Shown here piece after piece: positions 1-57,770 of a stretch of 57,770 bases of DNA. Position 1 is the stretch's first letter; each line of letters opens with the position of its first letter. This DNA is from a virus. Taxonomy: Duplodnaviria > Caudoviricetes. The translations under genes were made by a program, and so were the position numbers. The notes beneath the pieces were generated by a model. The model saw only the letters and a list, made by a program, of their open reading frames with translations. It ran no database searches and had not been told where the DNA came from. The stretch spans positions 1 to 57,770 of the IMG/VR virus record IMGVR_UViG_3300010226_000007; one strand, given 5' to 3'.

Positions 1-112
1 CGTCGAGGCTGTTCTGGTCGTGCATGGCGCGGCTCCGGGCGGTACGGGGTGGCGGTATGCAGATGAGCCAATGGTGCACGATCCAGCCGACAACCCGGTC
101 CGATGGCACAGC

Positions 113-142
113 GAAGGCCCCGGTTGGTCGGCCGGGGCCTTC
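113..142. terminator. Hairpin terminator ending the transfer operon
   Basis: Perfect inverted repeat GAAGGCCCCGG-N8-CCGGGGCCTTC just past the stop of 155..442(-). Confidence 0.7.
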
Positions 143-154
143 GAGGGGGCGGGT

Positions 155-442
155 CTACTTGCCGGCGTTGTTGATGAGCCACTGGCCGTATTCGCGGTCG
201 GCGTCGGCGCGGATGTCATAGCGGTCCCAGCCGACTTCGACGGCCTGCTCGATGGCGGGCTGGACGTGGAGCAGGTAGTGCATGCGGTGCTTGCGGCCGG
301 CTCGCTGGAGGCGGGCGCTGTCGACGAGGAGGTGGACGGCGAGTTCGCGGAGTTCACGGCGGTCGTCTTCGGTGTAGGCGTTCGGGGAGGTGGGGGTGAC
401 GACGCCGTTGAGGAAGTCGGGGATGTCGAGGGCGGTGGTCAT
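155..442 (-). CDS. Hypothetical protein
   Basis: 95 aa ORF with AAGGAG RBS; last gene of the left operon. Confidence 0.7.
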   Translation of the reverse strand: MTTALDIPDFLNGVVTPTSPNAYTEDDRRELRELAVHLLVDSARLQRAGRKHRMHYLLHVQPAIEQAVEVGWDRYDIRADADREYGQWLINNAGK

Positions 443-457
443 GGGGTGCTCCTTGGG

Positions 458-976
458 TTAGAGGCCGCGGTCGGCGGCGTGTTGGGCTGTGCGGTCGAGG
501 TAGAGCAGGACGGGGGCGGGGCTGGTCTGGGCGTCGTTCCAGGAGGGGACGGTTTTGGCGTCGGGGAAGTCGCGTTGGATGGCGTCGAGGAGGAGGGAGG
601 CGGCTGAGGAGGTGAGGCCGCGGTCGCCGCGGGCTTCGATTTGGATGGCGCCGAGGATGCAGCGGGCTTCGGCTTGGTCGTCGCGGAGGTCGCCTTGGTG
701 CCAGCCGTGGGTTTCGATGTGGCGGGCGGCCTGCCAGAGGACGGCGGCGATGCGGGTGTTGTAGGGGCAGGCGTGCGGGGTGAGGATCGGGGTGAGCGGG
801 ACGACGTCGGTGAGGGCGGCCGGCGCGTTGGTGTCGATGTGGGCGGTGCGGATGGCGAACTGGGCTGCGGCTTCGTCGAGTCGGACGCTCATGGCGGCGT
901 CGGCGAGTGCGAGCCGTGCGTCGAGGTCGAGGAGCGGGGGCGCCGGGGTTGCGGGCGCGCGGGTGAGCATGGTCAT
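458..976 (-). CDS. Hypothetical protein (DUF6197-like)
   Basis: 172 aa; IETHGWHQG...CILGAI...WND pattern resembles an actinomycete mobile-element family (recalled, not searched). Confidence 0.6.
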   Translation of the reverse strand: MTMLTRAPATPAPPLLDLDARLALADAAMSVRLDEAAAQFAIRTAHIDTNAPAALTDVVPLTPILTPHACPYNTRIAAVLWQAARHIETHGWHQGDLRDDQAEARCILGAIQIEARGDRGLTSSAASLLLDAIQRDFPDAKTVPSWNDAQTSPAPVLLYLDRTAQHAADRGL

Positions 977-1063
977 GTGTGGGTTGCCTTCTGCGCGTAT
1001 GCGCGTGGTGGGTGGAAGGGGCGCTCCGGTGCTGTCCAGGCGTTGCGGGGCGCCCCGGCTTGG

Positions 1064-1480
1064 CTATCGGCGTCGTCCGCGGGCGCGGATGGCCTGGCGG
1101 GTGGTGGGGTCGCTGCCGGAGCGGACGCGCTTGTCGAGGCCGCTGATCTCGGCGTCGTCGAGGTATCCGCTGTAGTCGCCGTGGCCGAGGGGGCCGGCGA
1201 CCTGCGGGGGCGGGTCGGCGATGTTGCGCAGGCCGCGCGGGGGCGCGTCGTAGACGGGCCCGAAGTTCTGGCACAGGGTCACGGCGTCGATGCCCATGGG
1301 GCCGCTGAGCGGGGTGCCGGTGAGGGGCAGCCGGCTGGTGAAGGTGTACTCGCTGTAGGTCTTGCTGTCCTCGTAGGGGGCGAGGTTGGTCGCCATATTG
1401 AAGACGACGTAGTAGGGCTTGTTGAGCTGGAGCTGGCGGGCGAACTGCTTCGCCTGGTGGCGCTGCCAGGTGCGGGCCAT
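1064..1480 (-). CDS. Hypothetical protein
   Basis: 138 aa ORF with GAAGGAG RBS. Confidence 0.7.
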   Translation of the reverse strand: MARTWQRHQAKQFARQLQLNKPYYVVFNMATNLAPYEDSKTYSEYTFTSRLPLTGTPLSGPMGIDAVTLCQNFGPVYDAPPRGLRNIADPPPQVAGPLGHGDYSGYLDDAEISGLDKRVRSGSDPTTRQAIRARGRRR

Positions 1481-1508
1481 GAGTGTTCTCCTTCGGGTGG
1501 GTTGGGGG

Positions 1509-1697
1509 TTAGCCGATGCGGGTGGCCATGAAGGTGTGGATCGTGTAGCCGCGCGGGTAGGCCTGGTCGAGGCCGACTTCTACGGCTTTGCGGATGTTGG
1601 CTTCGGTAGCGTGGTCGGGGCCTTGGGTCTCACCGGTGACCGGGCCCTTCCGGCCGTTCGCCTCGATGAGGGCGCTCCATTTCCAGAAGCTGGCCAT
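1509..1697 (-). CDS. Hypothetical small protein
   Basis: 62 aa ORF with GGAG RBS. Confidence 0.6.
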   Translation of the reverse strand: MASFWKWSALIEANGRKGPVTGETQGPDHATEANIRKAVEVGLDQAYPRGYTIHTFMATRIG

Positions 1698-1746
1698 GGT
1701 GTTGGTTTCTCCGTTTCGGGATGGTTTGTTCGGGTGGACATAGGGT

Positions 1747-1887
1747 GGTTTGCCCCGGACTGAACCCCTTCTGGGGTCGGACAGGGGGTGGACATCGTCC
1801 GGACAGCGTCCGGGTTCCGTCCGGCCTGTCCGGGTGGACAGTCCGGGGCATATCCGGCGTTGTCCGGGTGACAGTCCGGGGCAAACC
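1747..1887. repeat. clt-like locus (putative TraB recognition repeats)
   Basis: Eight TCCGG cores in 1798-1879 (- strand CACCCGGA/AACCCGGA/GCCCCGGA variants), a ~24 bp direct repeat (1827-1850, 1861-1883) and a perfect 16 bp inverted repeat (1747-1762/1872-1887), directly downstream of traB. Confidence 0.7.
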
Positions 1888-1905
1888 TCACATACCGTCG
1901 GCGAT

Positions 1906-4104
1906 CTACTCGCCTTCGAGGAGCTTCAGCGCATCGGCGATGTCGGCCTTCTGGTAGCCGTTGACGCGCCCCACGCCCTCGATGTCGACCTTGACGGTGC
2001 CGCCGGCTCCGGCGTCGCGCAGGAGCTTGCCGAGCCGGGTCTCGGTCATACCTCCGCCGATGACCTCGGCCATCTCCTTCACCTGGGCGACGTCGCGGCC
2101 GAGGTCGGCCATGACCTTCATGCAGCCGCGGAGCGCGTCCATCTGCATGCGCTGCTGCGGCGTGTGGTTGAGGACGTTCCGACCGGGGACACCGTCCCGC
2201 TTCGGCCCGCCGGCCGCCGAAGACAGGCCAGTGGCGTTCAGGAGGTGCTTCTCGATCGGGTCCTCCCACTGCCCGGTCAGGCGGCCGTGCTTCTCGCGCA
2301 GGTTGGCAGCCCGTTCGTTGATCAACGTCACCTCTTCGCGCTCGTCCTGGTCCAGGTCGAAGGAGCGCGCCTTGTCGGTGACGCCGACGAACGGGTTGAC
2401 CAGCCAGCCGAGGCCGGGACGCGGTGGGTCGAACTTGGAGGCGTCCCGGCCCATGCCTGATGAGCCCCTGCCGAGGATGGCGTTGGACTGGTCGGCGGTG
2501 TCGACGCGCATCGCCCACTTGGTGGTGCAGTTGACGGCGAGGGCGGTCGGGATGACGTCGCTGCTCGGGTACTGAGTGATAAGCGCCATGAGGATTCCGG
2601 CGCCTGCGGCTACGGCGGAGAGCTCGATCAGCGCTTCGAGGATCTCGTCCCGCAAAGGCCTGTCCGGCCTTGTGTACGTGGCAAGTTCGTCGATGACGAG
2701 CAGTTCGAGGCCGCCGATCCCTTCGATGGCCTGCGGGACCAGCTTGCTCTTGCCGAGCCGGCCGAGTTCCGCCTCGCGCCGGTTCTTGTCGGCGATGAGT
2801 GCGTGCAGGAGCGCGAGCAGCCTGTGCGCGTCGGGCTTGAAGTACGTGCCCGCGACGCCCGCCTTGGCGTAGGGGTCCCATTCGCCGTTGTTCTTACCTG
2901 CGACGATGCGGTGGTTGATGCGCACGTCGAGCGTTGATCCAGCGACCAGGTTCGCGGCGCCGACTCCCTTTCCGGAACGGGTTCCGCCACCGATGATGAA
3001 GTTGGAGTCACGGATGGGCAGGCAGATGGTGTTGCCGCGCTTGCCCCAGCCGACCGGCACGCCGTCCTTGAAGGCGTCGATCTGCCCGGACTTCCTGACA
3101 AGCGGCGAGGGGCGGACCTCTTCGAACGGGTCCTGGTCGGCGATCCACAGGCTGGTGCGGACTGCGGATCCCTTCTTCTCGATGTCGACCATGACGGAGT
3201 CGCGGCCGATCGCCCCGGCGAAAACCTCGATCTTGTCCTGGAGCTTTGCGACGGTCTGACCTGCGGGAAGGTCGAAGACGACGGTAGTGCTGCCGTCCTT
3301 CTCGCGCTGCGGCACGGCCAGGATGGCGAGTTGTTCGTCCCCTTTCACCATGCCGATCTTCCGGAGGGCTTCCTCAAGCTGCGACACGGTGAGCGCGGGC
3401 GGCGGTGGGGCGTTGAAGTCCCGCACCCCAGGCTGCGGTTCGGCCTTCACCATGTCGACGGGGGTGGCCAGCTGCTCCATCGGAGCAGGCGCAGGCTGGC
3501 CGTCGACGAAAGGGCGCGACACGAGGTACCAGCCGTAGCCAGCCGCGGTACCGAGCACGGCGAGGATCATCGGCTGGCCGTGCGCGGCATTTTCGATCGC
3601 GGCACCGGTCACCGGAAGGGCGGCCAGGCTTCCGCCGGCCAGGGCGAGGGCACGCCCGGCCCGCTTGCTGTGGCGGACGCTGTCGATCTCACGGTCTGTG
3701 GGCGGCAGGACGGGCTGCGCCTGCAGTGATGCCAGCTTCGATTCGGCGGCTGCGACCTGCCCGGCGAGCGCCGTCAGCAGGCCGGTGCTTCCGCCCCGCT
3801 CCCCGAGCTCGGCCTGCGCCTTGGCAACGTGCAGGCGGGCGTGGAGGCGGGCGACGTGCGCTTCGAGGTGGGCGACCTGCTCGGCCCGCTTGCGCTCCTT
3901 GCGTTCGGCGGCGTGCTGGATGGCGTCGACAGGGTCGAGGTCGCCGCCGGCCAGCCAGTCGCCGATGCGGGCTCGGGCGTGACCGCGCTGCTGCGCGAAG
4001 GCGGCCTTGGCGCGGTCGCCGCGGGTGGGCTGGTCAGCCTGCTCGGTGAACGGCGGGCCCGTGTGGGGCTGGTAGTCGGGGTGCGGCGGGATCTCGGTGG
4101 CCAC
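1906..4104 (-). CDS. traB: TraB-like FtsK/SpoIIIE DNA translocase
   Basis: 732 aa; two N-terminal hydrophobic helices, Walker A GGTRSGKG, Walker B LLVIDE, TQYP motif, C-terminal winged-helix-like region; architecture of Streptomyces TraB. Confidence 0.85.
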   Translation of the reverse strand: MATEIPPHPDYQPHTGPPFTEQADQPTRGDRAKAAFAQQRGHARARIGDWLAGGDLDPVDAIQHAAERKERKRAEQVAHLEAHVARLHARLHVAKAQAELGERGGSTGLLTALAGQVAAAESKLASLQAQPVLPPTDREIDSVRHSKRAGRALALAGGSLAALPVTGAAIENAAHGQPMILAVLGTAAGYGWYLVSRPFVDGQPAPAPMEQLATPVDMVKAEPQPGVRDFNAPPPPALTVSQLEEALRKIGMVKGDEQLAILAVPQREKDGSTTVVFDLPAGQTVAKLQDKIEVFAGAIGRDSVMVDIEKKGSAVRTSLWIADQDPFEEVRPSPLVRKSGQIDAFKDGVPVGWGKRGNTICLPIRDSNFIIGGGTRSGKGVGAANLVAGSTLDVRINHRIVAGKNNGEWDPYAKAGVAGTYFKPDAHRLLALLHALIADKNRREAELGRLGKSKLVPQAIEGIGGLELLVIDELATYTRPDRPLRDEILEALIELSAVAAGAGILMALITQYPSSDVIPTALAVNCTTKWAMRVDTADQSNAILGRGSSGMGRDASKFDPPRPGLGWLVNPFVGVTDKARSFDLDQDEREEVTLINERAANLREKHGRLTGQWEDPIEKHLLNATGLSSAAGGPKRDGVPGRNVLNHTPQQRMQMDALRGCMKVMADLGRDVAQVKEMAEVIGGGMTETRLGKLLRDAGAGGTVKVDIEGVGRVNGYQKADIADALKLLEGE

Positions 4105-4166
4105 TGGCCTGGTCCTTCCTCGGGTCGGGGGCGGGGCCCGGGGCGGGCCCCGCCGAGGGGTGCGGC

Positions 4167-4760
4167 TTAGCCGAGGCCGCCGAGCATCGAGCCGAGCGAG
4201 CCGAGCAGCGAGTTCGTCATCTGGGCGCCCATGCCGCCGATGACGGTGCCGGACAGAGCGATGCCGAGCAGGCCGACGAGGACGGCGTCGAGCGACTTGA
4301 TGTGCCCGTGCTTGACCTTGAAGAACACGATGATCGACAGGGCGAGGATGGCGACCACACCGGTGGCGACCACACCGCCGGACGCCTGGGTGGTGATCTG
4401 CTGGTTGTAGCCGGCCGGGACCTGGCCCGTGTTGTAAGGGTTCTGCAGCTGGGTGCTGGTGCCGTCGTCGGCCGTGTTGCCGGTGGTGATCCCGGCCGGG
4501 TCCTGGGTGTCGGTCCGGTACGCGGCGACGGTGGCAACGTGCTCGGCGGTCGCGTGGTGGCCGTAGCCGCCCATGCCGGTGATCCGCAGCGTGCGCCCGT
4601 CGGGCAGGGTCACCGGGGCGGTGACCGCACGCTCGGCGACGGTGTGCATCTCGACGGCGGACGCGGCCGGCGCGGCGGCGACCCCGATGGCCGCGGCGCC
4701 GCCAAGGAGGGCGACGGCCGCACTGCCCGACACGGCAATCTGACGGAAGGTGATGCTCAT
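4167..4760 (-). CDS. Secreted/membrane protein of the transfer module
   Basis: Signal-peptide-like N terminus (AxA) and two C-terminal hydrophobic helices; directly upstream of traB. Confidence 0.7.
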   Translation of the reverse strand: MSITFRQIAVSGSAAVALLGGAAAIGVAAAPAASAVEMHTVAERAVTAPVTLPDGRTLRITGMGGYGHHATAEHVATVAAYRTDTQDPAGITTGNTADDGTSTQLQNPYNTGQVPAGYNQQITTQASGGVVATGVVAILALSIIVFFKVKHGHIKSLDAVLVGLLGIALSGTVIGGMGAQMTNSLLGSLGSMLGGLG

Positions 4761-4784
4761 GACTGGACTCTCCTGATGGTGGGG

Positions 4785-6065
4785 TTAGTTGTCGTTCGGG
4801 CGGGAGTTCTTACGGCGCAGCAGCTCGCTGTGAGCGCGGCCAGCGGCGCGGTGATAGCGAGGTGTGTCATTGGGCTTCCGGCGGGGCGGAACGGGCTTGT
4901 ACGAAGAGCGGGGTGTTTGGACCGCACGCTGCGCATTCGTGTTCTTGCTGAGGGTGTTGACGGGCATGCCGGAGCGCGCCGCTTCGACACGCTTCTCCGC
5001 CTTCCGCCGACCGGTGATGATGTCCGCAGACTCGGCCGGGTCGGCGCCTTCGATGTCGCGGTGCGCGCGCTTCCAGACGGCCTCGGTGACGGTCGTCTCA
5101 CCAAGAGCGGCAGCGATCTTCAAGGCGTGCTTCCACACCTCCGGGAACATGTCCTCGCGGTCCTTTGCGAGCTTCTCTGCCGCCGCCTTCGCCGCCTCCT
5201 CCGCAGCCTGCTTGTCGGCGGCCCGCTTCTCCTCGTCGGCGGCTCGTTGCGCGGCTTCCGCCTTGGCCGCCTTTTTGGCGGCCTTGCGTTCGCGGCGGGT
5301 GGGGACGCCGTCGCGGCGGCGGATGCGACCGTGCTCGTGGAGGTCCCATACGCCGGGGCCTGCGATGGAGGCGAACGCGGTCGCCAGGGCCGTACCGGGG
5401 TCGAAGCTGTGGAGGCCGTGGTAGAGGTTCACGCCCGCGGCGACGAAGGCCAGCAGCCAGACGATGGCGCGGTAGTGCCAGACCGGCCGCCGGTTGGCGA
5501 CGGCGGCGCGGGCGCCACGATGCACGACCCAGGCCGCACCCTCCAGCATGATCGGGGCGGCGGCCATCCACGGCGCCTTCGGGTTCCAGAAGAAACTCAT
5601 CTGGACCGGCAGGGACACGATGCCGCACACGACCGCGAACTTGATCGCATAGGAGCGCCACTTGTCGTCGGCGTCCTTCACCTCGGCCGCGGCGTTCTCC
5701 TCGGCCTGCTGCTGCTCCTCGTCGGCGCGCTGCTCCTTGGCGCGGGCGCGCTCGATGTCCTCGCGCTTCTTGTCCGCCTCGGCGATCTTCGCGCGCTGCT
5801 CGGCCTGCTCCCGCTGGAAACGCAGAGCGGCACGCTCATTGGCGATGGCCTGCTTCTCGTTCTCCAGCCGCTGCGTCTCCGCCTGCTCGGCGGCGAGAAT
5901 CTCGGCGGCTTTCGCCTCACCCTCGGCCTTCTTGCGCAGCGCTTCGGCTTCGGCGGCGGCGCGAGTCCGGATCGCCTCCGCCTCGGCCAGCGCCACCGGA
6001 TCGAACCGGGGCTCGGGCGAGGTCAGCGACATCCCGTTGACCTTCTTCTCGACGGAGGTGGTCAC
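4785..6065 (-). CDS. Spd-like (SpdB2/DUF2637-type) multi-TM coiled-coil protein
   Basis: GTG start with AGGAAGGA RBS; long Ala/Glu/Lys coiled coils around about four TM helices (APIMLEGAAW, AGVNLYHG). Confidence 0.65.
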   Translation of the reverse strand: MTTSVEKKVNGMSLTSPEPRFDPVALAEAEAIRTRAAAEAEALRKKAEGEAKAAEILAAEQAETQRLENEKQAIANERAALRFQREQAEQRAKIAEADKKREDIERARAKEQRADEEQQQAEENAAAEVKDADDKWRSYAIKFAVVCGIVSLPVQMSFFWNPKAPWMAAAPIMLEGAAWVVHRGARAAVANRRPVWHYRAIVWLLAFVAAGVNLYHGLHSFDPGTALATAFASIAGPGVWDLHEHGRIRRRDGVPTRRERKAAKKAAKAEAAQRAADEEKRAADKQAAEEAAKAAAEKLAKDREDMFPEVWKHALKIAAALGETTVTEAVWKRAHRDIEGADPAESADIITGRRKAEKRVEAARSGMPVNTLSKNTNAQRAVQTPRSSYKPVPPRRKPNDTPRYHRAAGRAHSELLRRKNSRPNDN

Positions 6066-6162
6066 GCTGATCGGTGTCCTTCCTGGACTAGGTGGGGTTT
6101 GGTAGGCGCCGTGGCGGCGAGGCCGCGGGGGAACGAATCCCGCCGCCACGGCAGTCAGGGGG

Positions 6163-6327
6163 TCAGGCGGCCAGGGGCAACCGCAGACCGAGCAGCTCGT
6201 CGACGAGCCGCGGACCCAGCGGAGTGATGGCGTCAACGCCAGCCGCCTGATCGAGGATCAGCCGCCGTGTCTCCGCGTCGGCGTCGATGAACTGGGCGAT
6301 CAGACGAGCACGGTCCTGAATAGACAT
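6163..6327 (-). CDS. Hypothetical small protein (54 aa, not in ORF track)
   Basis: MSIQDRARLIAQFIDADAE... with AAGGAA RBS. Confidence 0.55.
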   Translation of the reverse strand: MSIQDRARLIAQFIDADAETRRLILDQAAGVDAITPLGPRLVDELLGLRLPLAA

Positions 6328-6420
6328 GGGGGTTCCTTAGAAGGTGAAGGGGGTGGGGTGGGCACCGCGGGCGGCGGGACGGGGGGAGCGTTCAATCGCC
6401 GCCCGCGGCGGTCTAGGGGG

Positions 6421-6681
6421 CTAGCGGCGCCGGCATGCCTCGTCGTCGATCAGCTGCAAGTCGAAACCGTGCCCGGCAGCAGTCACCACCGCCCGGTCGA
6501 ACTCACGCACCGCCCGACGCCAGCCCGGATCCGTAGTGTGGTCACGGCCCTGGGCCTTCAGGCGCTCCTCGACCACACGGCAGGCATTCGACTTATCGGC
6601 CGCATCAGCCAAGGCCGCGGAAGCACGACGCTGCTCATCCCGCCGGTACGCCGACCATTCGGCACTCTGCGCGTCAGCCAT
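6421..6681 (-). CDS. Hypothetical protein
   Basis: MADAQSAEW... with GAGG RBS; overlaps the upstream gene. Confidence 0.55.
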   Translation of the reverse strand: MADAQSAEWSAYRRDEQRRASAALADAADKSNACRVVEERLKAQGRDHTTDPGWRRAVREFDRAVVTAAGHGFDLQLIDDEACRRR

Positions 6682-6898
6682 CCGAACCACCTCGCTCGGC
6701 ATCGAGCGCGGCCAGCAGATCGGCCAGCACGTAGTGCAGCCCATAGGCAGCACGGATCATCTCGTCCTTGTCGTGAATGTTCGCCGGAGCCTTCTCAGCA
6801 AGAACCTTCCGAGCCCGGTCAATGGCCTGCTGCAACGCCGGCACGACCGAATGCGCATCCCTCTCCGGGTTGTACAGCGGGTCGTAAGAGGCACTCAC
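6674..6898 (-). CDS. Hypothetical protein
   Basis: 74 aa, 4 bp overlap with the upstream gene. Confidence 0.6.
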   Translation of the reverse strand: MSASYDPLYNPERDAHSVVPALQQAIDRARKVLAEKAPANIHDKDEMIRAAYGLHYVLADLLAALDAERGGSDG

Positions 6899-7161
6899 GC
6901 CGCACCGCCGATCAGGTCCAGGCGGCCGGCCGCGGCGAGCGTGGCACGCGCACCCGCCATCAGATCCTCGGCGTGGGCGAGGCTGTCCGCGTCCAGGTCC
7001 GACAAGGTGCCGGCCTCGGCCAGCGCCGCCAACTGCACCGCACGCACCGTCGCCGACTCGTAGACCGTGACGGCCTCGACCAGCGGGAAGTGCGCGGCGA
7101 TACGGGACGCCGCATCGGCGGCCAGGGCGGGGAGCGGGGCGGTGGGGGTCTCGGTGCTCAT
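6895..7161 (-). CDS. Hypothetical protein
   Basis: 88 aa, ATGA overlap. Confidence 0.6.
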   Translation of the reverse strand: MSTETPTAPLPALAADAASRIAAHFPLVEAVTVYESATVRAVQLAALAEAGTLSDLDADSLAHAEDLMAGARATLAAAGRLDLIGGAA

Positions 7162-7568
7162 GCCGTCACCGCCTTGAGGGCGCGGCCCATGGTGCGGATC
7201 TTCTCGGCGAAGGCGACGAGGTTGTCGGCGAACGTCTCGGCGTGCTCGGCGTCCATGTAGGAGCCCTCGGCGCTGCTGCCGTCCTCGATGAAGAGGAAGG
7301 GGCGCCGCATCTCCTCGTTGCTGCTGAAGGGGTCGATGCCGAGGCGGGCGTAGGCGAGGAGGTCCGGGGTGCCGTTGCGGCGCGGGGCCTCCAAATCGGC
7401 GAACTCGCCGGAGTGCCAGACGTCCTCGATGAAGCGCTGATTATCCCGAACATGATCAATAACACACCATGTCGGACATTCCAGGTAGCACCGCTGGCCG
7501 TCGATGAGGGCCGGGACGATGCGGATGTCTGCCGCGCTAGTAGCGGCGGACTGTACGGTGGTCTGCAC
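7158..7568 (-). CDS. Cys/His protein (DUF6907-like), first gene of the transfer operon
   Basis: CPTWCVIDH...WH motif; GGGAGA RBS. Confidence 0.6.
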   Translation of the reverse strand: MQTTVQSAATSAADIRIVPALIDGQRCYLECPTWCVIDHVRDNQRFIEDVWHSGEFADLEAPRRNGTPDLLAYARLGIDPFSSNEEMRRPFLFIEDGSSAEGSYMDAEHAETFADNLVAFAEKIRTMGRALKAVTA

Positions 7569-7672
7569 GGTTAGGTCTCCCTAGTGTGAGGGCGTTCCGA
7601 CCTAGGCCCCGTTTCGGTGTTCGCAGCACCGGGCGGGGCCGTTTTGTTGGCCGCTTGCCTGCCAACGACTCC

Positions 7673-7702
7673 ACCGTAGGGAACATGGTGTTCCCGCGTC
7701 AA
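7673..7702 (-). promoter_or_regulatory. Sigma70/HrdB-type promoter with operator palindrome
   Basis: - strand TTGACG-N18-TACGGT; spacer holds GGGAAC-N5-GTTCCC (7679-7695). Confidence 0.6.
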
Positions 7703-7792
7703 GCGCAGGGACCTAGTATTTTTCGCCGCGTCCGCGTAACGTCATGTCACGTGATTACAGACGACCGGACGACGAATGGAACACTGTGTGAC

Positions 7793-8023
7793 ATGGACAA
7801 ACGATCACTGGAGCAGCTGGCGCAGCAGTTCAAGAAGTCCAAGGACAGGACCGAGAACCTGCGCAAGACGTTGGCGACCGCCATCCGGTTGGCCGACGAA
7901 GACGGTGTGCCCCAGAAGGACATCTGCGAGGCGACCGGATACACCCGCCAGCAGGTCCGCCGGATCATCGTGTCCCCCGAGCCGGACGAGGACGGGACCA
8001 CTGGACTCGCAGGCCAGGGCTAG
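7793..8023 (+). CDS. Small HTH regulator, probable repressor of the transfer operon
   Basis: GVPQKDICEATGYTRQQVRRII HTH; divergent from the operon. Confidence 0.7.
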   Translation: MDKRSLEQLAQQFKKSKDRTENLRKTLATAIRLADEDGVPQKDICEATGYTRQQVRRIIVSPEPDEDGTTGLAGQG

Positions 8024-8157
8024 CGCTCTGTCGTTCGCCATGCTCATACAGTGCCGCCGCGAGGGCCTTCTGCGCGGCGGCACTTCTGGCGTCGCTCCAC
8101 CCCCAAGGGGGCGTCAAACGGGTGTCATCAGGGGGCAGATCCCGCTACCGTTGTGAC

Positions 8158-8919
8158 ATGACGACACCAAACGCCACATTGCGGGCGATCCGGATCAGCA
8201 TGCTCCTGAGCCAGGACGAGTTCGCGAAGAAGATCAGGGACGCAGGCGCGCAGGCCGGCCAGCCCAATGATGCAACCAAGCGGCTCGTCCAGCGATGGGA
8301 ATCCGGAACCACCGCCGCCCCCCGACCGGTGTACGCCCGCGCGCTTGAGATCGCCACCGGAATGCCGATCGAAGCGCTCGGCTTCTCTGCCCCAATCATG
8401 GCGCGAGTCACCGATGACGGCGCTGGCGGCCACGACGTCCACCCCTCCCCCGAGGGTGTCGCCGCACCGGGGACCGGTCCCACCCCGCAGGCATCACCGC
8501 GCGGCAACTACTCGGGCGTGTGGCTGTCCAAGTACGAGTACTTCTCAAGTGGCCGCGACGGCAGCTTTGTCGGCATGCACTACGTGCTCGTCCTCCAGCA
8601 TGGCAATCGCCTTACGGTGCGGTCCCTCCCGGGAGCGTCGTCGAATCCGGACTCACCGCTCACCATGGACCTGACGGTGGACGGAGGCGTCGTCACCGGC
8701 ACTTGGGTCGAGACGACCGCCGCGGATGGCTACTACCGGGGCGCGCGCTATCACGGCGCTATCCAGATGCTTATCGAACCGACTGGCAGGCGCATGGCCG
8801 GCAAGTGGGTCGGTTTCGGTAAGGACTTCGACATGAATACGGGCCCTTGGGAGCTGCGCCTCCAAGACCCATCGACGGACCCAAAGACGATCAACAAGTA
8901 CAGCCGAGTACCCGAGTAG
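8158..8919 (+). CDS. XRE-family regulator with C-terminal beta-rich domain
   Basis: N-terminal LSQDEFA...VQRWESG HTH; beta-strand-rich C-terminal domain. Confidence 0.75.
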   Translation: MTTPNATLRAIRISMLLSQDEFAKKIRDAGAQAGQPNDATKRLVQRWESGTTAAPRPVYARALEIATGMPIEALGFSAPIMARVTDDGAGGHDVHPSPEGVAAPGTGPTPQASPRGNYSGVWLSKYEYFSSGRDGSFVGMHYVLVLQHGNRLTVRSLPGASSNPDSPLTMDLTVDGGVVTGTWVETTAADGYYRGARYHGAIQMLIEPTGRRMAGKWVGFGKDFDMNTGPWELRLQDPSTDPKTINKYSRVPE

Positions 8920-27564: not shown

Positions 27565-28962
27565 ATGCCAGGCTATATCGAGGATCGCTGGTACAGGAAA
27601 GGTCCGCCGGACCCGGACGACCCCAAGAAGAAGCCGACAAAGATCCCCACTGCGCTGCACGGCAAGGGCAAGCGGTACAAGGTCACCGGCATCCCCGGCG
27701 TCCGGTCCAGGTCATTCCCGGACGGCAGCCTCGCCGCGGCGAAGAAGTGGCTCGCCAACGCTCAGACCGACAGCAGCCGAGGCGAGTTCTTCGATCCCCG
27801 CGACGGCTCCATCACGCTCGACACCTACGTGCGTGACCACTGGTGGCCCACCACCCGCTATCCGCCCACGACCAAGGCGTCCGTGTGGTCGAAGGTCTCT
27901 AACCACATCCTCCCCTACGCCGGGGCCCTGCCCCTGAACCGCATCGGCTTCGAGGAAATCCGGGCCTGGCAGAGCTGGGCCGAGCGGCGCATCGACGTCG
28001 GCACCCTGGTCGTAGCGCGAGCCCACTTCTCGACCATCCTGCAGGCTGCCCACAAGGGCAAGCGGATCCCCGTGAACCCGTTCCGGGACGACGACCTCAA
28101 GGCGCCCCGGCGGCCGAAGTCGAAGGCGCTCGCCTGGGATCAGGAGACCGTGCGATCGGTGCGGCTCGCCCTGCCTGAGCGGTACCGCATCCTTGCCGAC
28201 CTGGCCGTCGGGGCCGGCCTGCGCCAGGGCGAGACGTTCGGCTTCTCCCCCGACGACATCGACGGCGAAGACCTCAACGTGGTTCGGCAGATCATCAAGG
28301 TGAAAGGGCGCTTCGCCTTCGCCCCGCCGAAGGGCAACAAGGAGCGGGTGGCGCCGTGCGCCCCCGAACTCGCCGAGGCCGTCAAGGAGTATGCGAACCG
28401 CTTCCCGGCCGTCGAGGTGACGATGCCGTGGGTCGACCCCGACCGGCCGAACCTCGCCTGGGAGCAGCGGCCGCAGCGCACGGTCCGTCTGCTGGTCACC
28501 ACACAGTTCACGAACGGCGTCAACGGTGGCGCGGTCACGAGGGACACCTTCAACGACCGGCAGTGGAAGCCGGCCCTGCGTGATGCCGGGCTGATCCCGC
28601 CGGCCGAGGTCGAATGGATGGAGCCGACGCGCGGCAAGCAGCCCTGGCGCAAGGAGACGTGGCAGATGCCCCGCGAGTACGGCTTCCACGTACTGCGGCA
28701 CACCTTCGCTAGCGTGGTTCTGGCTGAGGGTGAGACGATTACTCAGCTGGCTGCCTGGCTGGGGCACGGTGATCCGGCGTTCACGCTTCGGACCTACGTG
28801 CACTTCATGCCGAGGTCCGGCACGAGAGGGCGGGCGGCCATCGGGCGGTTCATGGTCGGTGAGCTTTCCGGGGCGGATGAGCTCCCTGGGGAGGCGGCTT
28901 CAAATGGATCTCCCCACATTCTCCCTGGCGTTGAGGATCTTGGGAGCGGCGACCAGTCGTGA
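27565..28962 (+). CDS. int: Tyrosine integrase
   Basis: GLRQGE, K (PKG), HVLRHTFAS, LGH...TLRTY catalytic motifs. Confidence 0.93.
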   Translation: MPGYIEDRWYRKGPPDPDDPKKKPTKIPTALHGKGKRYKVTGIPGVRSRSFPDGSLAAAKKWLANAQTDSSRGEFFDPRDGSITLDTYVRDHWWPTTRYPPTTKASVWSKVSNHILPYAGALPLNRIGFEEIRAWQSWAERRIDVGTLVVARAHFSTILQAAHKGKRIPVNPFRDDDLKAPRRPKSKALAWDQETVRSVRLALPERYRILADLAVGAGLRQGETFGFSPDDIDGEDLNVVRQIIKVKGRFAFAPPKGNKERVAPCAPELAEAVKEYANRFPAVEVTMPWVDPDRPNLAWEQRPQRTVRLLVTTQFTNGVNGGAVTRDTFNDRQWKPALRDAGLIPPAEVEWMEPTRGKQPWRKETWQMPREYGFHVLRHTFASVVLAEGETITQLAAWLGHGDPAFTLRTYVHFMPRSGTRGRAAIGRFMVGELSGADELPGEAASNGSPHILPGVEDLGSGDQS

Positions 28963-53524: not shown

Positions 53525-54935
53525 CGGTCACCTCCGCCGCCGCAGGCAGCTGCGCCGACTGGTCACTGAGCTGGGCAAGCCGGTCCATGAGCTGGCTGCC
53601 AGCCGCCGCACCGGCGGTACGCTGCCGCTCGATCGTGACCCGGCGCCGCTGATCCTCAGTCAAGCCGGCCATCTCCAGCGCCACATCCGAGTCGGCAGGC
53701 AGGATGCCGGTCGTGACGAGCTTGGTGACCGCGTCGACCTGGGCGGCGATCGTCGGCGTGGCCGGGTTGCGCCACACCGTCTCAATGCGCCGCTCCTTCG
53801 GCGGCGGCTCGCCATCCCGGAACCACAGCGCAAGCCGCATCGCATCCCGGTGTGTCGCCGAGAAGCGGCGGATGCGCCGTTCCGCCTTCTTGATCTGCGC
53901 GTTGTCGGCGTAGCGGATCGCGTCCGCGCTGGCCGGGTTGTCGCTGGTGTAGCCCAGGACGTGCGGGGCCACCGACAGCTGCGACGCCATGATTCGCGCG
54001 TACAGGTCGATGATTTTGGTCTGCCCGGAGGGGTCATGGGCCGTGAACGCGCCCACCGTCGGCACGTCGCCGTTCTCGTCCCGCTCCAGCGCCAGAACCC
54101 GGCCGATGTACGTCTCCCAAGCCGATTTCGTGTTCCCCTCGGCGTCCTGGAAGGCGCTCTCGGAGGCTCCGAGGATGTAGCGCTGTGGGGCGCCGAAGAA
54201 CTCCGCCGCGACCTCGATGCCCATCAGGCGTCGGCAGGCCGCATCCGTGATCGACATGACCTCGGGGGTGATCTCCGACTTGCCGACCCGGTCCGCGGTC
54301 CGCTGCCGGTTCGCCATCCGCAGCACCGGCACCATGCCCAGGTTGTGGATGTCCCGGTCGAAGACCTCCCACCCATCGGTGGTCTCCGCCGCGTACACCG
54401 TCTGGTCCTGCAGGTACAGCGTGACGATGCGGACGCCGTCCTCGACGGACTCCCGCAGGGCCGCCGTCGCCATCCGCAGGCGCGCATCCCAGAACATCGT
54501 CATGTCCAGCGGCGACTCGAACGTGATGAGCGGCGGATCGCCCTCCTCGCCCGAGCCGACCGCCACGTACTCGCGGCCGTAGGTGAGCGCATCCAGGTGA
54601 GCCAGCGAGGCTTCGTCGTACAGGTCGTTCGACTCGGCGATCTCCTCCAGGTCGGAGGAGTCTGCGCCGTCCGCCCACCGGAACGCCTCCAGGTCCAGGC
54701 GCTGCTCCAGGGACTCCACGCCGATCCGCGGCCAGCCAATGACCGTGTGCAGGCCTTTGAGTTGCGGCGGGATGGAGATCCCCAAATCGCGGATGATCTG
54801 TTCGCCGTTGAAGTACGCGTCCAACAGCTCCAGCCGGAACCGGCACGAAAGCAGGTCCGTTCGCAGCGCCGTCAGCAGGCTCAGCTCGTCATCCGACAAG
54901 AACGTCAACGGCAGAGTAGGGATGGCCGTCGTCAC
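53502..54935 (-). CDS. Portal protein (SPP1 gp6-like)
   Basis: YFNG, GWPRI.V, GKSEI, PQRY, NPASADA, WRNP motifs. Confidence 0.9.
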   Translation of the reverse strand: MTTAIPTLPLTFLSDDELSLLTALRTDLLSCRFRLELLDAYFNGEQIIRDLGISIPPQLKGLHTVIGWPRIGVESLEQRLDLEAFRWADGADSSDLEEIAESNDLYDEASLAHLDALTYGREYVAVGSGEEGDPPLITFESPLDMTMFWDARLRMATAALRESVEDGVRIVTLYLQDQTVYAAETTDGWEVFDRDIHNLGMVPVLRMANRQRTADRVGKSEITPEVMSITDAACRRLMGIEVAAEFFGAPQRYILGASESAFQDAEGNTKSAWETYIGRVLALERDENGDVPTVGAFTAHDPSGQTKIIDLYARIMASQLSVAPHVLGYTSDNPASADAIRYADNAQIKKAERRIRRFSATHRDAMRLALWFRDGEPPPKERRIETVWRNPATPTIAAQVDAVTKLVTTGILPADSDVALEMAGLTEDQRRRVTIERQRTAGAAAGSQLMDRLAQLSDQSAQLPAAAEVTGGGAGLG

Positions 54936-56662
54936 CGCAGCACCACCACCCGTCCCTTACCGCGCGCCCTCGAGCGCTTCGCCCAAGCCGGAGAGTTCAT
55001 CACCATGCGACGCAACATTCGGGCCCCGATCGCACACACCGCCAAGTCGACCTTCCGCGCCGACTCCCGATGCTCCTTGCCGATCGTGTAACCCCACGCA
55101 TTCGTGCGCCGACGGGCGTTGGAAATGTGCTGCCGCAGCACCTTGTGCCCGTCATGCGGCACCAGCCGCTCCAGCACGTCCCGGTAGAAGCGGTCCACCG
55201 CCTCCGTGAACACCTGCTGGTTCTTCGAGTTCCGCATGTCCCACAGCACCGCGTGCTGCCGCGGGCCACTCACGACCGCCTTCAACTGCAGGCGCCGGCC
55301 GTACCGCTGCGCCCACGCGTCGATGAAGCCGTCCCAGTATCGTTCGCCGTCCGCATCGTCCTGACCGGCGCCCGGGTCGGCGAAGAACGCCAGCGGCTTG
55401 TAGCGGGCGAAGACCTGGTCGACGACGCCGTCCACCTCATCCCGCGGAACCCGCCAGGGCCGGTCGCCCGGCCAGTTCGCCGGCCGCTGCCACACCCCGA
55501 GCGTCTTCACGAAGCCGTCCGACAGCCGGCAGCCGACCAGGCCAGTGGCGTCGTCGCTCTTGGAGCCGTCGAAGAACAGCACCAGCTCGTCGCCGTCCTC
55601 CAGGTCCAGGCCATCCTTCGGGTTGGCGTCCCACTCGTAGCGGGCCAGGAACGCATCCTCCGCGGCCACGATCTGGTTGAACCAGAACCGGCGCGACCGG
55701 CTTGGTGGATTGCGGACGTCGAGGATCGACGCCTTCAGCCGGTCCACGTCCAGCCACACCGAATCCCCGCGAACCGCCTTCAATGTCGGGACGATCCACG
55801 CCTCGGTCAGCTTCGCCTCCGCCGGAGCCTCCAGCGAGTCGTAGAACAGACCCGTGTCCACCGCGCGGCCGGACTCTGCCGACTCCCATGCTTCCCGCGT
55901 CCGCTCCGCAACGGACTCCTCGCCAGGCTCGTAGGCGTTCGTGTTCGCCAGCGTCCGCGCCTGACCGTCCGCGCTCTTGGTGGCGTTGCGTTCGATGACC
56001 GCGGCCATCTCGTGGCCCTGGTTCGACTCCACCCAGTGGTGCGTCTCCCCCAGCGACACGAACGTCGGCCGGCCACCCTCCAGCGCCCGCGGCGACGACG
56101 TCACCGCCTCGATGCGGGCCCGGCCCTTGTCGGCGTAGATGATCTCCTTGCCGAGGTCGATGCGGTACTCCTCGATCGCCCTCTTCGACAGGATCGACGG
56201 GAACAGCGTCATCGTGTTCCGCGTCTGATCCTGGCTGACGGCCGCGATCTGCACCCACGCCGCCGGATGCTGCACCCCCAGCGGCTGACCGGCCGGCACG
56301 CCCCACTCGTTGCCCTCGTCAGCGACCTTGCCGAACCGGCACGGGCCGACGAACTCGAACGCCGACCAGGTGGCGATGAGCGGGTCCTTGCCCCAGCCCT
56401 TCAGTCGCTGGATCACTCCGTCGCGCCACAGGAACCGGTTCGTCGCCGGGTCCATCGCGTACCACCACAGCGTCAGCCGGGCCTGCTCTGCGGTGTACCG
56501 CCACGGAGCGCCGACGTAGTGCTGCAGGTAGGTCGCCGTCCACGCCAGGCAGTGCCAGCCCAGCGTGAACTCCGGCAGCAGGAACCGCCCGTCCGGGCCG
56601 CGCTTCCACGTCGGCCCGATCGTGAACGGCTCGACGACCTCCGGGACTTCCTCGTCAGCCAC
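54932..56662 (-). CDS. terL: Terminase large subunit
   Basis: RLKGWGKD Walker A, GETH, FDGS..DD.TGLV nuclease motif, KVDLA. Confidence 0.92.
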   Translation of the reverse strand: MADEEVPEVVEPFTIGPTWKRGPDGRFLLPEFTLGWHCLAWTATYLQHYVGAPWRYTAEQARLTLWWYAMDPATNRFLWRDGVIQRLKGWGKDPLIATWSAFEFVGPCRFGKVADEGNEWGVPAGQPLGVQHPAAWVQIAAVSQDQTRNTMTLFPSILSKRAIEEYRIDLGKEIIYADKGRARIEAVTSSPRALEGGRPTFVSLGETHHWVESNQGHEMAAVIERNATKSADGQARTLANTNAYEPGEESVAERTREAWESAESGRAVDTGLFYDSLEAPAEAKLTEAWIVPTLKAVRGDSVWLDVDRLKASILDVRNPPSRSRRFWFNQIVAAEDAFLARYEWDANPKDGLDLEDGDELVLFFDGSKSDDATGLVGCRLSDGFVKTLGVWQRPANWPGDRPWRVPRDEVDGVVDQVFARYKPLAFFADPGAGQDDADGERYWDGFIDAWAQRYGRRLQLKAVVSGPRQHAVLWDMRNSKNQQVFTEAVDRFYRDVLERLVPHDGHKVLRQHISNARRRTNAWGYTIGKEHRESARKVDLAVCAIGARMLRRMVMNSPAWAKRSRARGKGRVVVLR

Positions 56663-57089
56663 CCGCGAGGTCACGGTAGGCATCCAGCGGGCTCACGCTC
56701 GCCAGCTTCGGGCCCGCCGGCTTCCGCTCCAGCTCCATGCGAGCGCGGCGGCGGTCACCCTCGGTCGTCAACAGGCTCGTCATCACACTGTTCAGCGCGG
56801 CCACATACTGACCGTTCGGCGGCCGATCCGACGACAGGCCCCGGGACATCAGCTCCGCCGCGTACCGGGCCATCGCCCAGTCCGACGGCTCGTAGAACGC
56901 GGCCTGGCCCGACTCACGCAGGGACAGGTACCAGTCGACGGCGATCTCGTGCCAGTTCGGATCCGGATCGGGCAGCTCGGGCAGATCTTCCGGCGCCCCT
57001 GCCGGGGCCTGCGTCAGCTCGGGGCCATCGTCCTTGTTCCGGCGACGGCGCTCCTCACTTCGCTTCGGAATCGGTCCATGTGCGCCCAT
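56655..57089 (-). CDS. terS: Terminase small subunit
   Basis: GPIPKRS..R, S.QA.FY..SDW, T.GDRRR motifs. Confidence 0.8.
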   Translation of the reverse strand: MGAHGPIPKRSEERRRRNKDDGPELTQAPAGAPEDLPELPDPDPNWHEIAVDWYLSLRESGQAAFYEPSDWAMARYAAELMSRGLSSDRPPNGQYVAALNSVMTSLLTTEGDRRRARMELERKPAGPKLASVSPLDAYRDLAGG

Positions 57090-57170: not shown

Positions 57171-57770
57171 TCAGACCAGCGAGGCAATCACGCCGGCCGC
57201 ATCATGCAGCTCGGCAAGCTCCAACGGGGTCCCGCTCACGCGGTCACCAACGATGATGTAGCGGCGGTCCGAGTACACCTCGACCGCCAGCTCGTTGCGG
57301 CGGATCCGGCGGCCGGCCGGGACCTCACCGCGGAACCACAGATGCAGTCCGCTGCCCGACCGCCCGCGCTCCATGTACGTCGCGGGCAGCGCGTCCACGA
57401 TCCGCTGCGCCCACGGCAACACCCGGCCGTCTTCGACCGCGTGGTCCAGGTCGACAACGACGATCCGGTCCGAGGCGGTCAGTACGAAGCCGACACCCTC
57501 GCCCGCAGTGGCCTTCGCTGCTGCGGCGAAGTCGGACCACGAGGACGGGTCCTGCACCGAAGCGAAGCGGCCGTCGATCCGGAGCGGCACCTTCTTCGCC
57601 GAGTACCGCACCCAGCGCGGACGGGCTGTCAACTCGGCCGGGATGCGCGCGGCCTGCTCGGCCGTCACCCGATCCCGCTCCGCGCGCCGCCGCTCCCGGT
57701 ACGCGGCCTGCCGGCACGGCGACGAGCAGAAGCGGGCATCGGCCCGGGCCATCAACTGCAGCGGGCCGGC
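57171..57770 (-). CDS. AEP/primase-polymerase-like domain protein (5' end outside window)
   Basis: FCSSPCRQ Zn motif, GVGFVL..VVDLDH, SGSGLH, EVY; frame open to the window edge. Confidence 0.7.
   Translation of the reverse strand, partial: AGPLQLMARADARFCSSPCRQAAYRERRRAERDRVTAEQAARIPAELTARPRWVRYSAKKVPLRIDGRFASVQDPSSWSDFAAAAKATAGEGVGFVLTASDRIVVVDLDHAVEDGRVLPWAQRIVDALPATYMERGRSGSGLHLWFRGEVPAGRRIRRNELAVEVYSDRRYIIVGDRVSGTPLELAELHDAAGVIASLV

Follow-up and report, generated by a model that had tools for sequence, protein, structure and literature searches.

A predicted plasmid-type DNA-transfer module, TraB-clt-Spd, in integrating phages of Streptomyces

The window analysed here, the whole of IMG/VR record IMGVR_UViG_3300010226_000007 (57,770 bp; Caudoviricetes, classed as 'linear'), carries at its left end an operon in which a gene for a TraB-like ATPase stands between homologues of the Spd proteins of Streptomyces plasmids and is followed by a clt-like repeat array. 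Streptomyces grows as a multicellular, septate mycelium of which a virion infects one compartment, and a phage that has a DNA pump of the plasmid type could pass through cell walls from within. In Streptomyces plasmids and in actinomycete elements that are both integrative and conjugative (AICEs), the transfer of double-stranded DNA (dsDNA) by TraB, clt and Spd proteins is established knowledge. For plasmid pSVH1, Thoma et al. (2015) give traB as required for transfer, spdB2 as required for intramycelial spreading and clt as a set of 8-bp repeats bound by TraB, the spd genes acting in spreading and not in primary transfer.

As the G+C content is uniformly high (63-72% along the entire window, and even), genes were called by third-position G+C (GC3). 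Those at the left end form an unbroken minus-strand row running from 7568 to 155, in the order DUF6907, orf88, three small open reading frames (ORFs), SpdB2 homologue, orf197, TraB, a 208-bp gap, orf62, orf138, DUF6197, orf95 and a hairpin. The features of the operon and its control region are listed below; G labels denote fetched relative records or genomes, L labels denote loci cut from genomes or plasmids, and the viral relatives are nine IMG/VR records described further on.

8122..8919, plus strand: helix-turn-helix (HTH) protein of the XRE type carrying a further domain at its C-terminus, the second candidate for a regulator (phrog_10886, E 1.5e-6)
7793..8023, plus strand: small HTH protein encoded divergently from the operon, of which it is a candidate repressor; 76 aa when read from the ATG at 7793 (Pfam HTH_23, E 1.3e-5; phrog_686)
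7674..7703, minus strand: promoter candidate TTGACG-N18-TACGGT, whose spacer contains the perfect palindrome GGGAACAnnnTGTTCCC (7680-7696), a candidate operator
7158..7568, minus strand: DUF6907 protein, operon gene 1 (Pfam DUF6907, E 1.1e-22); the G002 module also has an upstream DUF6907 gene
6895..7161, minus strand: orf88, operon gene 2 (GC3 0.92; homologues of 41-65% identity in G002, G003 and G006)
6163-6327, 6421-6753 and 6674-6898, minus strand: three small ORFs between orf88 and the spdB2-like gene (GC3 0.73-0.78 by frame analysis; no family above threshold); 6421-6753 is given from its first start codon, the real start likely being lower
4785..6065, minus strand: SpdB2 homologue, 426 aa, with a charged coiled-coil-like N-terminus and then hydrophobic helices (BLASTP to pSVH1 SpdB2)
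4167..4760, minus strand: orf197, predicted membrane or secreted protein of 197 aa between the spdB2-like gene and traB, in the position of pSVH1 orf108
1906..4104, minus strand: TraB-like, predicted FtsK-type dsDNA translocase of 732 aa (pSVH1 TraB homology, tree, fold; phrog_1358, E 4.6e-26)
1698..1905, minus strand: clt-like non-coding region, 208 bp directly after the traB stop
1509..1697, minus strand: orf62, small gene peculiar to this phage, with a low coding score and no homologue in the nine viral relatives
1064..1480, minus strand: orf138, conserved partner gene just past the repeat region (8 of 9 viral relatives and all 10 genome loci have a homologue, at 30-62% identity); without a match in Pfam, PHROG or NCBIfam, or a usable one in an Atlas search
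458..976, minus strand: Spd198 homologue (Pfam DUF6197, E 1.2e-21, 77.6 bits; in 6 of 9 viral relatives)
155..442, minus strand: orf95, the operon's last gene (GC3 0.92; homologues of 37-41% identity in G003, L054 and L055; no Pfam, PHROG or NCBIfam match)
113..142, minus strand: candidate terminator, a G+C-rich hairpin of 12 pairs with an 8-nt loop, directly 3' of the last gene

The ATPase combines a motor domain (aa 240-610) with a predicted winged helix (aa 649-729). Both nucleotide-binding motifs are intact (Walker A, G373-x-TRSGKG, with K379 at 2968-2970; Walker B, D472-E473, at 2686-2691), and their residues are invariant in all 24 aligned homologues, where the mean column identity is 73%. 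The N-terminal part shows long helices at aa 28-129 in a structural model, in a region that is poorly modelled (predicted local distance difference test, pLDDT, <50), and hydrophobic stretches around aa 150-197, one of which passes a crude Kyte-Doolittle scan. Against pSVH1 TraB the protein aligns with 28% identity over 380 aa by BLASTP (E 2e-30), with E 6e-24 by tblastn, and by hhalign at 99.7% and E 1.6e-26. A tblastn search with the ATPase against 72,556 plasmid records matched 74, of which 61 are from Streptomyces and which include pSVH1, pSG5 and pFP11; plasmid TraB genes, at 42-57% identity, are its nearest non-viral homologues.

We placed the protein in a quick maximum-likelihood tree of 28 proteins, which carries Shimodaira-Hasegawa-like approximate likelihood-ratio (SH-aLRT) support alone and has several long branches. 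The phage-type TraBs and the protein of plasmid CP042280.1 form one group, sister to the pZL1-type plasmid TraBs, and both groups are nested in a clade with pSVH1, pSG5, pFP11 and pSTS2 (SH-aLRT 95). Chromosomal FtsK, two other FtsK-domain proteins from a Streptomyces genome and pIJ101 Tra fall outside this clade on long branches, pIJ101 Tra being too divergent for tblastn at E 1e-4. A grouping with non-TraB FtsK families would have spoken against the first-pass annotation; in this tree the ATPase groups with plasmid TraB and not with chromosomal FtsK. As a separate observation, the closest non-viral TraB (52-57% identity) lies on CP042280.1 (L006, 38152-39524), a 92.6-kb circular, unannotated Streptomyces 'plasmid' that also holds homologues of provirus early genes; its TraB was matched in two pieces, the ORF there being only 552 aa, and may be frameshifted.

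Structure comparison points to the same class of motor. A profile search of the Protein Data Bank recovers the FtsK motor at E 2.3e-7, and although the whole-protein AlphaFold2 model is middling (pLDDT 65.8), Foldseek matches it to the FtsK motor (E 5e-11, prob 1.00) and next to the conjugation coupling protein TcpA and to EssC/EccC. The C-terminal 93 aa modelled alone (pLDDT 85.1) adopt a helix-helix-helix-hairpin-helix arrangement, whose best structural matches by VIA are winged-helix DNA binders: Rex (Z 7.3, root-mean-square deviation 2.5, 70 residues), MarR, IclR, ORC and IscR. Foldseek gave nothing for this domain at E <= 0.001 and weak winged-helix-type rows with a best E of 0.046; the FtsK gamma domain is not among the matches listed, which leaves it possible. 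The models nonetheless predict that the C-terminus is a winged-helix domain. Look-alike stretches in the window and pSVH1 C-termini (T-x-x-R/K-L-G and RV-x-GY) were given no weight, the alignment there being non-significant.

The 208-bp region after the traB stop holds five direct copies and one inverted copy of CCCGGAC at 1754-1880, that is, 6 of the window's 41 CCCGGAC sites, along with degenerate CCGGAC/CCGGAT copies, three GTCCACC and a perfect 16-nt inverted repeat (1747-1762 / 1872-1887). Six copies in 127 bp exceed the densest 130-bp cluster, of three at most, in 300 first-order Markov simulations of the window, so that the clt-like repeats are real. The published recognition repeat of pSVH1 TraB, as given in a review, is GACCCGGA, and in the pSVH1 record we find four direct copies and one inverted copy of it at 8158-8256, right past the traB stop at 8142, with three copies reading GACCCGGAC. 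The two arrays therefore occupy the same place and have a common core, CCCGGA(C). Six of the nine viral relatives again have their record-wide densest CCCGGAC cluster (4-6 copies) directly after traB, and no clear pattern linking the C-terminal sequence to the presence of the array was visible by eye across the relatives. As a side observation, orf62 is a small indel separating the array from orf138: in relatives' contigs from four metagenome runs (soil or unlabelled), position 1481 is joined to 1721 with about 25 other letters between.

The Spd-like part of the operon rests on two further pSVH1 homologues. The SpdB2 homologue, encoded just upstream of traB as in pSVH1, aligns with pSVH1 SpdB2 at 33% over 196 aa (E 5e-17; BLASTP against a local database of 13 proteins), matches plasmid DUF2637 genes that adjoin traB and is found in eight of the nine viral relatives. 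On Pfam DUF2637 it scores 15.9 bits, below the cut-off of 22.8, and pSVH1 SpdB2 is likewise without a Pfam match; its hydrophobic helices come from a crude hydropathy scan. The Spd198 homologue aligns with pSVH1 Spd198 at 36% over 80 aa (BLASTP, E 2e-7), and pSVH1 Spd198 itself belongs to DUF6197 (E 2.2e-23, 83.1 bits), both proteins scoring above the Pfam cut-off. The predicted membrane or secreted protein orf197 has no family match; a crude hydropathy scan gives it three hydrophobic segments, with a signal-like N-terminus and two of the segments at the C-terminus. Homologues of it occur in 5 of the 9 viral relatives and at 8 of the 10 genome loci.

The operon start (7568) is separated from the divergent HTH gene by a 225-bp gap, inside which GGGAACAtggTGTTCCC stands at 7680-7696. 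This palindrome occurs as a single exact copy in the window and is flanked on the minus strand by TTGACG (7703-7698) and TACGGT (7679-7674). A consensus scan returned no promoter-like site in 1-9600 and so missed this pair, which makes the promoter a candidate only, if a plausible one. At the other end, the fold of 60-170 reaches -48.3 kcal/mol (z -1.8), and in a terminator scan nothing intrinsic with a U-tract was picked up where the operon ends. The divergent regulators, the palindrome and the hairpin suggest a separately controlled unit. That the operon runs in the direction of the lytic genes points to its being expressed in lytic growth.

A homologue of the XRE-type regulator with 80% identity adjoins the module in G002, and phrog_10886 regulators also border the G004 module and, on plasmid CP042280.1, the tra region. 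The window's sole GntR domain is a lone 80-aa winged helix without an effector domain, 23 kb away at 30748-30990; we note in passing that it is 35% identical to the N-terminus of pIJ101 KorA. By PHROG assignment, L050 and L054 have a full-length protein of its family, phrog_10724, upstream of and divergent from the tra operon, and in L051, L053 and L055 a NUDIX gene lies upstream of it. Such genes recall the kor-pif regions of plasmids and AICEs.

Much of what the first-pass annotation had read from the letters at this locus stands: the single self-contained operon, the divergent HTH gene, the Spd-like proteins, the intact TraB-like ATPase and the clt-like repeats. Of the promoter/operator it placed at 7673-7702, the palindrome holds and the promoter is a plausible candidate; of its terminator, the 12-pair hairpin holds, lacking a U-tract. 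The regulators beside the module are not of the GntR type; they are a small HTH_23-type protein and an XRE-type protein.

The remainder of the window has the map of a temperate siphovirus with nearly all genes on the minus strand. Pfam and PHROG family scans identify packaging and virion genes (terS, terL, portal, protease, scaffold, capsid, connectors), tail and lysis genes (tail tube, chaperones, tape measure, tail proteins, endolysin, holin) and early genes (Ant, exonuclease, DnaB, resolvase, C5-methyltransferase), the last followed by the transfer module at the left end. Three of the phage genes bear on the argument:

54932..56674, minus strand: large terminase terL (phrog_9, E 3.3e-70), co-oriented with the tra module
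57171..57770, minus strand: Prim-Pol gene, truncated at the right end of the record (Pfam Prim-Pol, PF09250, 29.2 bits; phrog_8643)
27565..28962, plus strand: tyrosine integrase (Pfam and PHROG), the sole one in a whole-record scan, 23 kb from traB

The virion and lysis module is complete, spans about 22 kb and shares one molecule with the tra module; the terL product is 48% identical to those of Streptomyces phages phiHau3, Amela and Endor2, and a Xis-like gene stands beside the integrase as in a phage int-xis region. Virion, lysis and integrase genes, from terS through holin to int and xis, are present on one molecule as had been noted earlier, yet the genome cannot be called complete as was then supposed: CheckV completeness is 92%, end repeats are absent and the Prim-Pol gene is cut at the right end, so the record is partial. 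With the integrase in mid-record, we read the record as being in the excised or virion permutation and not as a prophage taken from its integration site with the flanks trimmed away. Pfam and PHROG scans of the called genes brought up neither ParA nor ParB nor a plasmid Rep family, no RepSA/RepAM gene appeared in the window's family scans, and a tRNA scan of the window found no tRNA genes. The earlier statement that no RepSA/RepAM-type initiator is visible is therefore correct, with the qualification that Prim-Pol, another AICE replication type, is present. That no second integrase exists is true of the tyrosine type; a resolvase/invertase-type serine recombinase of 198 aa (Resolvase + HTH_7) is encoded at 32822-33418, 4 kb from the tyrosine integrase and 29 kb from traB, and its relatives in G002 and G007 stand near the lysis end. 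Judged by the gene complement present, the window is a temperate siphovirus-type member of the Caudoviricetes of Streptomyces.

The module recurs in other phages. The window's TraB matches nine other IMG/VR records at 62-84% identity, six of them proviruses cut from genomes. All nine carry a large terminase and eight also portal and capsid matches; in G003 the three were assigned from tblastn matches to window genes, and G009 is a 34%-complete fragment with terL and portal only. The synteny of terL, traB and clt that the first-pass annotation had wanted surveyed in other prophages is thus seen with terL in nine of nine relatives and with the CCCGGAC array in six. At least five terL PHROG families occur among the PHROG-scanned records (phrog_9; 19179; 979/2; 2/10250; 38), G002, whose terL gene spanned two loci, being left out of this count. 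The genomes of the relatives are otherwise mosaic, TraB being their best conserved gene. Its place is between the replication genes and terS/terL for the module, which shares the orientation of terL except in G006, where terL and portal are on the other strand; this position is constant across viral records with unrelated virion genes. In G002, a 100% complete provirus, the order runs int - xis - RecE/RecT - methylase - DnaB - resolvase - regulator - DUF6907 - small genes - SpdB2-like - TraB - repeats - orf138 - DUF6197 - small genes - terS - terL - portal - capsid - tail - lysis - invertase.

Neither in the window nor in any of the nine relatives did a tyrosine integrase come to light within 20 kb of traB. 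Such a gene is seen elsewhere in the window and in seven of the relatives (in G002 and one G006 copy by PHROG alone), and none was found in G007 and G009, both of which are fragments. Nor do direct repeats of >= 16 nt bracket the module, the left flank being 112 bases cut by the window end. In agreement with the earlier view that this is no separately inserted AICE, these comparisons, together with the shared position in diverse phages, indicate that the module belongs to the phage and is not a nested AICE or other inserted element.

Ten chromosomal loci in Streptomyces and Kitasatospora hold the same core of SpdB2-like protein, orf197, TraB, orf138 and DUF6197. By locus length and match position, four of them are apparently the same places as four of the IMG/VR proviruses; four of the remaining six have terL or portal <=10 kb downstream. 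The order at L059 is TraB - orf138 - DUF6197 - Prim-Pol - terS - terL, and G001 too has Prim-Pol between the DUF6197 gene and terS/terL. From this synteny the two ends of the window would be adjacent on the phage map and the missing piece small, about 1-2 kb. An IS-type (insertion-sequence-type) transposase gene (phrog_506, E 3e-120) at G001:C1:43589-44746 (L018:3589-4746) sits in the 16-kb stretch from Prim-Pol to the module and may explain the wider spacing there. Since Prim-Pol is one of the AICE replication types, the module and Prim-Pol may share a plasmid or AICE origin.

Two Streptomyces 'plasmid' records of about 90 kb (NZ_CP109578.1, here L080, and NZ_CP108705.1) have a portal 71% identical to that of the window, and the first, which is linear, has an annotated terminase and capsid gene as well. 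Both look like plasmid-form prophages related to the virion module of the window phage. In NZ_CP109578.1, the one of the two that was searched, TraB had no match, so that the module is accessory. The three nearest plasmids, CP042280.1, pZL1 and NZ_CP108495.1, yielded neither PF05065 Phage_capsid nor phrog_9 terminase, the two families tried, and by this measure look like plasmids.

Deposited phages hold little of this kind. A megablast of 1-8100 against them gave no match. Among 50,697 deposited phage records the window's TraB has five weak matches, all in phages of Bacillota, with no actinophage gene at E <= 1e-5, and SpdB2, whether that of pSVH1 or of the window, has no tblastn match at E <= 1e-3. 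In public sequencing runs at most 0.16 of the sampled words of 1-9500 occur in any one run, no RNA run is among the runs listed as containing them, and contigs from four runs are short pieces of relatives that bridge solely inside the module.

A few other features of the window may be recorded. The serine-invertase region also holds the lone GntR winged helix and an XRE repressor-like gene. Within 32078-32684 and 33574-34311, a gene for a 74-aa protein with a LexA DNA-binding domain is divergent from one for a DUF6233 protein, and near it a 245-aa protein has weak zinc-metalloprotease matches under the Pfam cut-offs; this may be an immunity or moron region. After the XRE-type regulator of the module comes a T5orf172/MUG113 (GIY-YIG-like) protein (8935-9508), followed in turn by a near-perfect 16-nt hairpin at 9474-9508. 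A single plus-strand gene within the minus-strand early region (17225-17509) has a weak Phd/YefM antitoxin match (23.9 bits, under the cut-off), with no toxin partner called next to it.

Taken together, we consider it fairly probable that the phage owns a pSVH1-type TraB-clt-Spd set for moving its own dsDNA between hyphae or compartments, and from the observed homology, gene order, repeat array, fold class and conservation across varied prophages we infer how it would act. Under the timing set by the HTH regulators and the palindrome, TraB hexamers would use their C-terminal winged helix to bind the CCCGGAC array, and phage dsDNA, circular or replicating, would be driven across the envelope by the FtsK-type motor. 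Onward passage through septal cross-walls would fall to the homologues of SpdB2 and Spd198 and to the small membrane proteins, so that the phage genome could reach neighbouring hyphae or compartments without virions and there integrate or go lytic. More tentatively, and with chances that we would put somewhat short of even, these integrating Streptomyces prophages may form a self-transmissible family, in which the excised circle is pumped by its own TraB from its own clt and the phage spreads both as a virion and as naked dsDNA.

Several observations weigh against this reading. The Pfam model FtsK_SpoIIIE (PF01580) does not match the window's TraB even at E 10, and the NCBIfam model plasmid_TraB (NF041214) gives it 19.2 bits against a cut-off of 800. 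The winged helix at the C-terminus has Z-scores <8, a range that the tool grades as common, and its alignment with the C-terminus of pSVH1 TraB is not significant (z -0.13). Three of the nine relatives (G003, G005 and G006) lack a CCCGGAC cluster; of these, G003 and G006 keep an enrichment of CGGAC after traB, and G005 does not. The TraB family is also uncommon: at E <= 1e-150 it is found in 7 of 401 genomes of Streptomyces species, which is a minimum, and one of the seven was picked because it has the gene. The usual GntR regulator of kil-kor systems (TraR/KorA) is absent beside the window's module, where the divergent genes are of the HTH_23 and XRE types. Finally, judging from its layout the operon may be on only in cells about to lyse, which fits the spread of an infection better than mating from a stable lysogen.

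The failure of the Pfam model can be read as part of a gradient. PF01580 gives pSVH1 TraB 46 bits and pZL1 TraB 23.5 bits, under the cut-off of 24, so that we take the window's score to reflect divergence within one family. The same model misses the TraB homologue at G010:C1:2515289-2517463 on a complete Streptomyces chromosome in which it found 15 other matches. In a large protein collection 358 cluster representatives match at E <= 1e-10; the 120 listed are 66-100% identical, and most of those that bear a name are Streptomyces entries called 'hypothetical protein' in NCBI records. As PF01580 is blind to this TraB subfamily, AICE surveys relying on it would miss such elements.

The same machine might instead be used inside one mycelium, replicating phage DNA being pushed through cross-walls to give a larger yield per infection without mating. 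Thoma et al. (2015) noted SpdB2 homologues on the actinophages phiC31 and VWB and proposed that they spread phage DNA, and the spd genes of pSVH1, as cited above, serve spreading. The placement of the operon between early and late genes in the same direction, and the joint conservation of the SpdB2 and Spd198 homologues with TraB, fit this use. In plasmids, however, TraB and clt drive transfer between mycelia, and the window retains both. The sequence would fit either mating between mycelia or spread within an infected one; we hold confinement to a single mycelium to be unlikely, though not negligibly so.

The module might also be a passenger of no use to the phage, either a fragment captured from a plasmid or AICE or else a nested element, which serves only itself or is decaying. 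The plasmid affinities of the ATPase at 42-57% identity, the AICE-type Prim-Pol adjacent across the contig ends, the GntR-like and NUDIX genes upstream in relatives as in plasmid tra regions, and the portal-related NZ_CP109578.1 without TraB are all in keeping with such an origin. The absence of a tyrosine integrase <=20 kb from traB in the window and its nine relatives, the constant position on the phage map amid unrelated virion genes and the intact catalytic residues nevertheless weaken this reading, as do the status of TraB as the best conserved gene among mosaic phages, the even G+C content and the lack of a bracketing direct repeat of >= 16 nt (with the left flank cut by the window end). 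We regard it as very unlikely.

Nor do we give more credence to the idea that the ATPase and membrane proteins serve an end other than transfer of the phage, such as host growth arrest ('kil'), exclusion of incoming DNA or mobilisation of the host chromosome. In its favour, unregulated traB is reported to be toxic in plasmids (the kil-kor effect; Thoma et al., 2015), the category given to the family by PHROGs is 'moron, auxiliary metabolic gene and host takeover', lone FtsK-like translocases occur in cluster-J-type mycobacteriophages, Bacillus phages and Mischief19, and pSVH1-type recognition repeats are also clustered on the S. coelicolor chromosome according to a review. But the array in cis after traB in six of nine relatives suggests that the cargo is DNA of the phage itself, and the full Spd set is kept. 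An assembly chimera, in which a phage contig was wrongly joined to a plasmid or AICE contig, can hardly be right: the contig is linear with uncertain closure, and of the sampled words of 1-9500 any one public run contains 16% at most, but the linkage of early genes, module and Prim-Pol or terS/terL recurs in independent records including complete chromosomes.

We return to transfer of the phage's own DNA, an interpretation that the comparisons make plausible, with few parts, each of which has a well-studied plasmid counterpart. If it is true, entry into the recipient would be independent of receptors, and zygotic induction there could resemble a plasmid pock; such prophages would also be missed, or miscounted as AICEs, since the Pfam FtsK model is blind to their TraB. 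The question bears on plaque and pock biology, on receptor-based phage resistance and the limited transduction reported in Streptomyces, and on telling prophages from AICEs in genome surveys. Even without transfer, the module documents an exchange between plasmids and phages that has become fixed at one place on the phage map.

Among known systems, 'FtsK-like DNA translocase' genes in deposited phages (in many mycobacteriophages, for example Baka, Courthouse and Omega, in Streptomyces phage Mischief19 as gp79, and in Bacillus phages) likewise code for FtsK-type ATPases in phages of Actinomycetota and Bacillota. They differ, however, in being only weakly similar (26-29% identity over 20-41% of pSVH1 TraB), and Mischief19 gp79 stands alone at the end of its genome, where the annotation shows no SpdB2-like gene beside it. 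In phiC31 and VWB, SpdB2-like genes alone have been noted, to which the window adds TraB, a clt-like array and a Spd198 homologue.

A closer precedent is pZL12/phiZL12 (Zhong et al. 2010, J Bacteriol 192:3747), published as a Streptomyces 'plasmid-phage' with replication, transfer and a plasmid and lytic phage cycle. Like the window it unites phage particle genes and a conjugal transfer locus on one Streptomyces element; unlike the window it is an autonomous plasmid of about 90 kb with ParA/ParB, described as a singleton, whereas the window has an integrase and no partition gene in the family scans. Phage-plasmids of the pZL12/P1 type have partition or plasmid Rep genes instead of integration, and the window falls outside that class. 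The pZL12 record was not among the phage-collection matches of the window's or pSVH1's TraB, its presence in that collection being unconfirmed. A full-text literature search, in which coverage of subscription journals is thin, returned no report of integrating phages with a TraB-clt-Spd operon, nor did look-ups in a Streptomyces ICE/AICE survey, an actinobacterial prophage survey, reviews touching on phage-plasmids and the Samy prophage paper yield one. The dual lifestyle is thus less unprecedented than first thought, the pZL12 plasmid-phage and the idea of SpdB2-mediated phage spread having been published before.

With AICEs such as pSAM2 and SLP1 the window shares the signatures given by Ghinet et al. 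(2011), namely an integrase, a replication gene (of which Prim-Pol is one of three types) and an FtsK-type Tra, along with the predicted transfer of dsDNA by a single TraB. An AICE, in contrast, is a compact set of Int, Rep and Tra with int at one end and no virion genes, while the window has a full virion, packaging and lysis module, int in mid-record 23 kb from traB, and no RepSA/RepAM in the scans.

The nearest model remains pSVH1, whose genes in S. venezuelae run traR(GntR) <-> spdB3-spd79-spdB2-orf108-traB-clt-spd198-spd40-orf140. It differs in being a 12.7-kb rolling-circle plasmid, as against a 58-kb tailed phage with an integrase and no pSVH1-type rep; in its GntR/UTRA regulator TraR, where the window has a small HTH and an XRE-type protein and a DUF6907 gene first in the operon; and in its TraB, to which that of the window is 28% identical while scoring below the Pfam FtsK_SpoIIIE model. 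pSG5, pFP11, pZL1, pSTS2 and four other plasmids show the same layout of small genes, DUF2637/SpdB2, a small gene, TraB, a gap of about 220 bp and further genes. In pSVH1 and the window alike, a divergent regulator is followed by small genes, SpdB2, a single small gene and TraB, and these by repeats arrayed over about 200 bp and a DUF6197 protein, so that three homologues, SpdB2, TraB and Spd198, stand in the same order in a plasmid and in a phage.

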